The notes beneath the pieces were generated by a model. The model worked only from the letters and a program-made list of their open reading frames with translations. It was not told the DNA's origin and ran no database searches. Below, in pieces: positions 12,988 to 63,541 of a stretch of 64,000 bases of DNA. Each line of letters opens with the position of its first letter. Position 1 is the first letter of the stretch. Both the position numbers and the translations under genes were made by a program. This stretch comes from Vallitaleaceae bacterium. GTDB taxonomy: Bacteria; Bacillota; Clostridia; Lachnospirales; Vallitaleaceae. The stretch spans positions 235 through 64,234 of the forward strand of contig JANQFZ010000027.1 of assembly GCA_028277605.1 (NCBI GenBank), in the 5' to 3' direction.

Positions 12988-13151
12988 AATGAATTAACTA
13001 GTAGGCTGCTATTATGTCTACTATAGCTTATGATTCATTAGATGTATAGTTACAACTAAATATAATAGGGATTAGCAGTCATAATGAGTTATAGGGTTTA
13101 GTTAGGGTAAGTAGTCATTGAGTTTCCTTTTTGGTTTTACGAAGGACAGTC

Positions 13152-13309
13152 AAAATTTTAGCTATCGGTAACGGTCAAGGGTGAATAGTATTAGCTCCAT
13201 AACCCCCTAAACGTCCATGTTTAGTAGGGGTCACGCTTCACTCCTGTTTCGCTGTGGTGCTAATACTATTCACCCTTTCTGTTCGCACATCTCATGTTGC
13301 TAAAATTTT
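13152..13309. repeat. Palindromic intergenic repeat, largest copy (copy a)
   Basis: Perfect 19-bp arms AAGGGTGAATAGTATTAGC (13177-13195) and GCTAATACTATTCACCCTT (13259-13277) around 63 nt that contain an inner hairpin. An outer 11-bp inverted repeat lies at 13152-13162 / 13299-13309. Confidence 0.6.
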
Positions 13310-13481
13310 TCGTTCCAAAAGTTAACAGATATAGTTAAAAATATATCTAGTATAACTAGTATAAAAAGGATACAAGTATAAAGAAACTGGTACCTGATAT
13401 AGTAGTATTAGTCAATAAGAATAGTGAAATATATTTGATTAAGTAATGGAGAATTATAACTGACAAGAAAATTGAGGAATT

Positions 13482-16843: not shown

Positions 16844-16881
16844 AAGGGTGAATAGTATGTTGTTCCATACTATTCACCCTT
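16844..16881. repeat. Palindromic intergenic repeat, minimal copy (copy b)
   Basis: AAGGGTGAATAGTATG-TTGTTC-CATACTATTCACCCTT: perfect 16-bp arms with a 6-nt loop, followed by TTTTT on the plus strand. Confidence 0.6.
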
Positions 16882-31581: not shown

Positions 31582-31637
31582 AAGGGAGAATAGTACTAGC
31601 TGCACAGCAAAACTGAAGCGCTTAACTATTCACCCTT
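31582..31637. repeat. Palindromic intergenic repeat, intermediate copy (copy c, inverted relative to copy a)
   Basis: Arms AAGGGAGAATAGT/ACTATTCACCCTT (1 mismatch) around a 30-nt centre. The centre aligns with the reverse complement of the right half of copy a (..TAGC.CACAGC.AAAC..TGAAGCG..). Confidence 0.5.
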
Positions 31638-63505: not shown

Positions 63506-63541
63506 AAGGGTAAATAGTATGTGCTAATACTATTTACCCTT
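63506..63541. repeat. Palindromic intergenic repeat, minimal variant copy (copy d)
   Basis: AAGGGTAAATAGTAT-GTGCTA-ATACTATTTACCCTT: perfect 15-bp arms. Relative to the other copies, G>A in the left arm is mirrored by C>T in the right arm. Confidence 0.55.

Follow-up and report, generated by a model that had tools for sequence, protein, structure and literature searches.

The four palindromic intergenic sites that an earlier note had picked out in this DNA are probably members of a dispersed, non-coding and non-autonomous repeat family of the REP/MITE kind, which folds as a nested hairpin and decays by deletion. We regard as real the undescribed superfamily of structured repeats of this kind, marked by a conserved twin-hairpin core, to which they point. 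The window, by which is meant the whole 64,000 nt stretch analysed, corresponds to C59:235-64234 of a draft genome of 3.34 Mb and 33% GC. All four loci were found to read as described, including the lengths of their arms, loops and centres (Table 1), and three of the copies have the flank (G/A/T)TCAAGGG in common. Half-sites of the 12-mer GGGTGAATAGTA, allowing up to one mismatch, occur eight times in the window where 0.41 would be expected by chance, a number attained by none of 100 shuffles. The motif also recurs beyond the window, with 72 half-sites at the same tolerance, or around 36 paired elements, genome-wide. A nhmmer profile detected 47 loci across the genome (E <= 0.05), several of them at contig ends and none lying within an ORF. 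Around 20 copies in the genome are full or near-full-length, and around 25 are fragments or short hairpins; a covariance model recovered 24 core-bearing copies. The copies align widely outside the stem, with a pairwise identity of 0.89 in the core, and together with the genome-wide repetition this supports the earlier reading of a REP/MITE-type or structured-RNA family. Nor has a name been found for it: Rfam gave no match at the gathering threshold and, at E <= 10, nothing beyond chance snoRNA and IMES-5 matches far below the cut-offs, whilst the literature searched contained no description of it.

Table 1. Positions within the window of the full-length element, its component parts and the shorter copies.
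Feature	Position	Strand	Details
Full-length nested-hairpin element	13139..13319	+	nhmmer profile positions 3-184, 195 bits; 18-copy alignment
Outer stem left arm AAAATTTTAGC	13152..13162	+	11 bp inverted repeat; conserved GAC(A/G)GTC precedes
Left internal loop	13163..13176	+	short variable linker, then GGTAAC-GGTCA
Inner stem left arm AAGGGTGAATAGTATTAGC	13177..13195	+	helix 2; 19 bp
63 nt core	13196..13258	+	almost invariant across 18 copies; kept in genus g4 and low-copy relatives
Core hairpin 1	13204-13230	+	CCCC-CTAAAC-GTCCAT-GTTTAG-T-AGGGG, loop 13213-13218
Second core motif CACTCCTGTT	13239-13248	+	CGCT repeats on flanks
Inner stem right arm GCTAATACTATTCACCCTT	13259..13277	+	helix 2; 19 bp
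Right internal loop	13278..13298	+	conserved TCTGT, then 15-18 nt without sequence constraint
Outer stem right arm GCTAAAATTTT	13299..13309	+	11 bp inverted repeat; then TCGTT(A/C)C
Short copy	16844..16881	+	16 bp arms, 6 nt loop, flanks TCAA/TTTT
Internal-deletion derivative, opposite orientation	31582..31637	-	13 bp arms with one mismatch between them, 30 nt centre; retains core GCACAGC-AAAC-GAAGCG
Short copy	63506..63541	+	15 bp arms, 6 nt loop; compensated G>A / C>T arm change; flanks GTCAA/TTCT

At 13.2 kb the inverted repeats had been placed correctly, but the true element is larger than they are, spanning about 13139-13319; alignment of the long copies with wide flanks gives a unit length of around 180 bp. 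From the outside inwards, this comprises a weakly conserved left end (TTACGAAAGAC-GTC), the outer 11 bp stem (AAAATTTTAGC/GCTAAAATTTT), a left loop with GGTAAACGGTCA at its end, the 19 bp inner stem and the 63 nt core, which contains two small hairpins, followed by a right loop of TCTGT plus 15-18 bases and then TCGTTACGAA. The left-loop motif TTTG(G)TAAAC is common to this element and to the families of a related genus, g4. The window copy lies downstream of a + strand CYTH-like gene, convergent with a tRNA operon, and has a predicted + strand fold of -65 kcal/mol (z = -8.2; for the - strand, z = -6.8). Its outer inverted repeat, its size and the lack of a conserved ORF are MITE-like traits. 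Sharply defined termini could not be demonstrated from the aligned copies; TTACGAA is present at both ends of some of them, as element sequence. A small ORF starting from an NTG in the loop was considered and rejected, as it has no RBS, indels disrupt its frame and no conservation of the peptide is seen from one genus to another.

The pairing of the two stems is maintained despite extensive change in their sequence. In the alignment of the 18 full copies, pairing extends to 95.8% of cells and double changes affect 12 pairs (33 cells), values attained by none of 500 shuffles and far above those of slid controls. The outer helix (helix 1) is 87% paired, with double changes at three pairs, and the inner (helix 2) 98% paired, with compensatory double changes in eight of its 23 pairs; at least ten independent compensated arm variants were counted by eye, and a subfamily of three copies has a wholly different inner stem around the same core. 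In the g4-type families, double changes are found in 23 of 39 pairs, with around two G-U cells in total. The stems vary through Watson-Crick-preserving double substitutions only, with the loops and core fixed. Mean pairwise identity falls from 0.89 for the inner stem and core to 0.74 for the outer parts and to 0.41 for the variable loop, which indicates that unconstrained positions are near saturation whilst the rest is held. The variable 15-18 nt segment is not complementary to the left loop (permutation p = 0.65), and its own flanks are neither identical nor complementary to it beyond expectation; roles for it as a guide, a capture resembling a target site duplication or a pairing partner were therefore rejected. 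Mismatches on the + strand are more often G-T than A-C (14 against 7), a weak hint that this is the strand that folds. No two copies in this genome are identical, hence there is no sign of recent activity.

The earlier note also held the copies to be related by descent, as deletion derivatives in both orientations. When the 3' half of the full centre, together with the arm, is reverse-complemented, the centre of the 31.6 kb copy matches it at 26 of 30 positions (p = 0.017 in a centre-only shuffle), and this copy is one of seven among 17 short copies that retain significant fragments of the core, in either orientation. Some short copies can be demonstrated to be internal-deletion derivatives. 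For the two window copies with 6 nt loops, descent is shown by the arms and 4-6 flanking bases only. The copy at 16844-16881 lies 65 nt past a - strand amidase gene and scores as terminator-like on both strands (by a hairpin and U-run criterion); that at 31582-31637 is found between convergent genes, and upstream of that at 63506-63541 the left outer region persists as a degenerate remnant. Adjacent or tandem copies occur elsewhere in the genome, at C53:124481-124882 and C57:21000-21275, as two full copies 58 nt apart and as a full copy beside a right-half copy.

Full copies are found within housekeeping operons, at the junctions gatC|gatA, trpE|trpG, rplQ|ecfA and ftsY|ylxM and in the rplA|rplJ leader, as well as at lepA|hemN, galK|galE, rsgA|rpe and lepB|rbgA, the gene names having been assigned through reading translated ORFs rather than by family search. 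Many begin within around 35 nt of a stop codon, and the flanking genes have no common function. The spacer between gatC and gatA is 411 nt here, compared with -9 to 28 nt across eight further genera of the family, which indicates that the element was inserted. At this locus (C80:29546-29745), around 195 nt of unique, non-repeated DNA separates the element from gatA, and this stretch too has no counterpart in the tight junctions of the relatives. In the aligned copies, a search for target site duplications revealed no variable direct repeat flanking them. In comparisons between strains, other samples have the identical locus present, with their contigs breaking in the repeat, and the JDSF/JMSU comparison yielded a 211 nt deletion only.

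The orientation of the copies relative to genes, another check proposed for the family, is biased for the full copies and unbiased for the short ones. Full copies are co-oriented with the upstream gene in 18 of 21 cases and with the leading strand in 18 of 23, such that the + strand of the element is on the lagging-strand template; the window copy follows the local + strand gene, against the replichore. As orientation tracks both transcription and the leading strand, readings based on RNA and on single-stranded DNA are confounded. An outward promoter at the right end was rejected as an explanation for the bias, as TGnTAnAAT is present in only seven of 18 copies, has a poor -35 and is absent from the g4 families.

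The covariance-model search of related genomes that had been suggested for the family found the same architecture in six of the 11 genera of the bacterial family, at between one and 66 copies per genome. The exact core pattern is present in five of 401 genomes in the order, namely this one and four species of genus g4, and also in two metagenome-derived assemblies. The model (R1), built from elements of both genera, has matches in all seven g4 species (66 in G011, 48 in G032, 31 in G020, 27 in G024, 26 in G016, eight in G003 and one in G028) and in four further genera with two to four copies each. The g4 elements have the same plan and core with different arms, of which there are at least five variants, and their conserved loops are GGCTAGAGGTTT, TTTTCAG and GATATTGACGTT. 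In the low-copy genomes all the stems differ, and both small hairpins retain RTCC(R)T loops; between lineages, stems have been replaced and the hairpin loops RTCCRT kept. Such turnover in the low-copy relatives, with the loops kept, looks more like a host-level constraint than a selfish repeat and counts against the REP/MITE reading. The relatives' copies favour the 3' ends of genes: seven of ten low-copy sites are between convergent genes, and 60 g4 copies include 23 at convergent and five at divergent sites. In tandem contexts orientation differs by species, at 10:1 in G011, 2:7 in G020 and 4:3 in G032; shell and core appear to be of like polarity in the example copies, and a tally of motifs left most copies unclassified. 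One subfamily, with arms GATAGACTAGGTTTAGC, appeared near-identical by eye in three g4 species (L155-L158, L176-L178 and L207 in G011, G020 and G016), which would point to either horizontal transfer or very strong constraint.

Several known groups of repeats resemble the nested element in part. Like the Correia elements of Neisseria (PMC2649163, PMC5039591) and the bcr, RUP and BOX elements of Firmicutes (PMC3184786, PMC3049150), which are non-autonomous sequences of 100-200 bp, it has terminal inverted repeats and a conserved core, is probably co-transcribed with its neighbours, forms long hairpins and exists in shorter, internally deleted forms. It differs from them in that no TA or other target duplication is seen, and in that an outward extended -10 is confined to the seven copies mentioned above. 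Moreover, its free stems and fixed loops are the reverse of the MITE pattern, in which the terminal inverted repeats are conserved and the interior is free.

One alternative is that the core is a structured RNA module used by the host, its - strand providing CsrA sites that act in cis, or decoys, which a repeat vehicle has dispersed; we consider this unlikely. On the - strand, the loop of each core hairpin reads A(N)GGA(Y) with a C-G closing pair, and hairpin 1 reads ACANGGACGU, a perfect match, conserved across genera, to the CsrA/RsmE consensus (A/U)CANGGANG(U/A) as quoted from Schubert 2007 in PMC6849547. Hairpin 2, reading CCAUGGACGG in g4 and ACAGGAGUG here, carries GGA. The loops are the only sequence retained where low-copy genera replace all the stems, and the core is constrained whilst neutral positions are saturated. 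The presence of csrA in all 12 element-bearing genomes is not discriminating, as the gene is found in 30 of 35 genomes. However, the strand bearing GGA is antisense to the operon transcript in 18-20 copies here, with no internal promoter seen for it; the species-dependent orientation described above, the lack of a shared function among flanking genes and the near absence of G-U pairs from the stems, which is unusual for a selected RNA, also weigh against this reading. The CsrA-binding RNAs of the CsrB/RsmZ type (consensus in PMC6849547) likewise have C-G closed ANGGAN loops, of which the - strand of the element has two; the differences are that each unit here has two sites only, and that units are nested in a long hairpin, dispersed as repeats and mostly antisense in this genome. 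In its most specific form, with the core as a portable twin-hairpin CsrA-binding module, bearing C-G closed ANGGAN hexaloops on one strand, that a repeat vehicle would have scattered to gene ends in a family of low-GC anaerobes, the proposal seems rather unlikely. If true, it would supply CsrA with RNA partners, as cis sites or decoys, in Firmicutes. The known antagonist of CsrA in Firmicutes is a protein, FliW, and to our knowledge no sponge RNA for CsrA has been described in them.

A second alternative, which we judge distinctly unlikely, is that a REPIN-like element is moved by the single Y1 (HUH) transposase of the genome, of the RAYT/TIRYT type, through recognition of a folded single strand on the lagging-strand template. 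The search for a cognate TnpA(REP) did uncover one RAYT-like gene: its 269 aa product matches the NCBIfam 'REP-associated tyrosine transposase' model with 85.9 bits (cut-off 80) and has E. coli TnpA-REP (4ER8) as its best match in the PDB. No tie to the nested element emerged, apart from one direct link: the right-inner-arm 12-mer GCTAATACTAGT occurs six times in the genome, on five occasions within an element and on one where it overlaps the stop codon of RAYT. The excess of + strands on the lagging-strand template, the G-T bias in + strand mismatches and the GACGGT(C) tags ahead of both left arms are also in keeping with such mobilisation. On the other side, it is a different repeat, TGGGGACGGTTC, present in around 35 copies, that stands ahead of the RAYT gene; the profile of this repeat does not match the nested elements, and the RAYT genes of relatives are flanked by a hairpin of the TGGGGACGGTTC type without the nested element. 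There is no conserved GTAG tag; any GTAG in the element is a chance occurrence within a variable site (AG[CTA]AGGGG), and CGTC is in a loop rather than at the foot of the hairpin. Furthermore, G011 and G024, with 66 and 27 copies, have no Y1_Tnp domain (PF01797), whilst G028 has 30 Y1 matches and one element; it is the element-rich genomes without the domain that make mobilisation by RAYT unlikely. An apparent co-occurrence, in which the exact core pattern tracked an intact RAYT in g4 (4/4 against 0/3), was withdrawn once the covariance model found many variant-loop copies in RAYT-free genomes.

The REP/BIME and REPIN-RAYT systems of E. coli and Pseudomonas (PMC3116915, PMC3337134, PMC5581495) are similarly composed of small extragenic palindromes at the 3' ends of genes or between cistrons, with symmetric changes that preserve hairpin pairing and a single-copy RAYT-like gene in the genome. 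The nested element differs from them in lacking the GTAG tag, in not consisting of two inverted REP units, in not flanking the RAYT gene, in being abundant in relatives without a Y1 transposase and in having the conserved, asymmetric 63 nt core. The likeness to TIRtrons and their TIRYTs (TnpA-Y1 subclass 2.1; PMC3733652, PMC6006769) belongs to the second repeat family, which has no significant similarity to the nested element: the long Y1 protein has an extended C terminus, and before its gene is a GGGG-led repeat, GGGGACGG, comparable to the GGGGWSAS consensus, which is moderately abundant and sometimes forms inverted doublets. This second family (aAGCa.TGGGGACGGTTCtTTTTGCTT) has its roughly 35 copies outside the window, one of them 57 nt upstream of the RAYT/TIRYT-like gene (C37:64319-65182, locus L052). 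In relatives the RAYT genes have flanking hairpins with the same GGGGACG(G/T)TTC loop as this family and species-specific stems, and the motif is enriched in several of the genomes. The second repeat and RAYT together make up a TIRtron-like system in a Firmicute family.

Other candidates for a mobiliser were not sustained. No IS with matching ends was found, the outer termini occurring 16 times in elements and three times elsewhere, never beside a transposase. A transposase adjoining a truncated g4 copy was rejected as an autonomous parent, as it belongs to an unrelated IS4-like insertion; this element (L122:1745-3420, JMSU01000070.1), encoding a 440 aa DDE_Tnp_1 protein, lies inside a g4-type nested element and has TIRs of its own, 17 bp long (AATGTCATTAAGTTAAG); at the second GTCC hairpin, 11 bp are duplicated (GTCCGTGGCAC). 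Breaks at this point in two further contigs suggest a target preference. At the start of the window there is a group II intron (90-261, - strand; Rfam RF02001, 152 bits), preceded by an unrelated 12 bp terminator hairpin at 348-383; a connection with the repeat was discounted, as the target hairpin of the intron is unrelated. Finally, that the sites are independent intrinsic terminators convergent on one stem, as the terminator scores of the 16844-16881 copy on both strands and the many copies of relatives lying between convergent genes might suggest, is hardly credible and, for the whole family, is refuted by the alignment of around 180 bp between copies, unpaired loops included, in addition to which a U-tract is missing from most copies and full copies lie inside the gatCAB and trpEG operons, where termination would harm.

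For a dispersed REP/MITE-kind family folded as a nested hairpin, the unit would be both recognised and propagated in the form of a folded single strand. DNA is likelier than RNA to be that strand, given that the covarying stems contain almost no G-U pairs, and the conserved loops may be contact sites for a factor that copies or protects it. Once inserted, large copies would decay through arm-to-arm deletion into short perfect hairpins, a step for which the core fragments in some short copies provide part of the evidence; some of these hairpins may now occupy sites at which terminators are needed, the one that scores as a terminator being an example. Full copies in transcribed intercistronic spacers, lying in the sense orientation, would form stable RNA hairpins within operon transcripts.

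Knowledge of small structured repeats is good for Proteobacteria and poor for Clostridia-like Firmicutes. The present family is unusual in that its stems are free whilst its loops and core remain fixed from genus to genus, and in having no tie to a transposase of the RAYT type, the explanation for similar repeats elsewhere. Its members disrupt short-read assemblies, with contigs terminating within them and long unannotated spacers resulting. It offers a tractable case in which to ask what copies such elements, whether selection or templated repair from arm to arm maintains their pairing, and whether repeats within essential operons, such as gatCAB, trpEG and those of ribosomal protein genes, alter expression.
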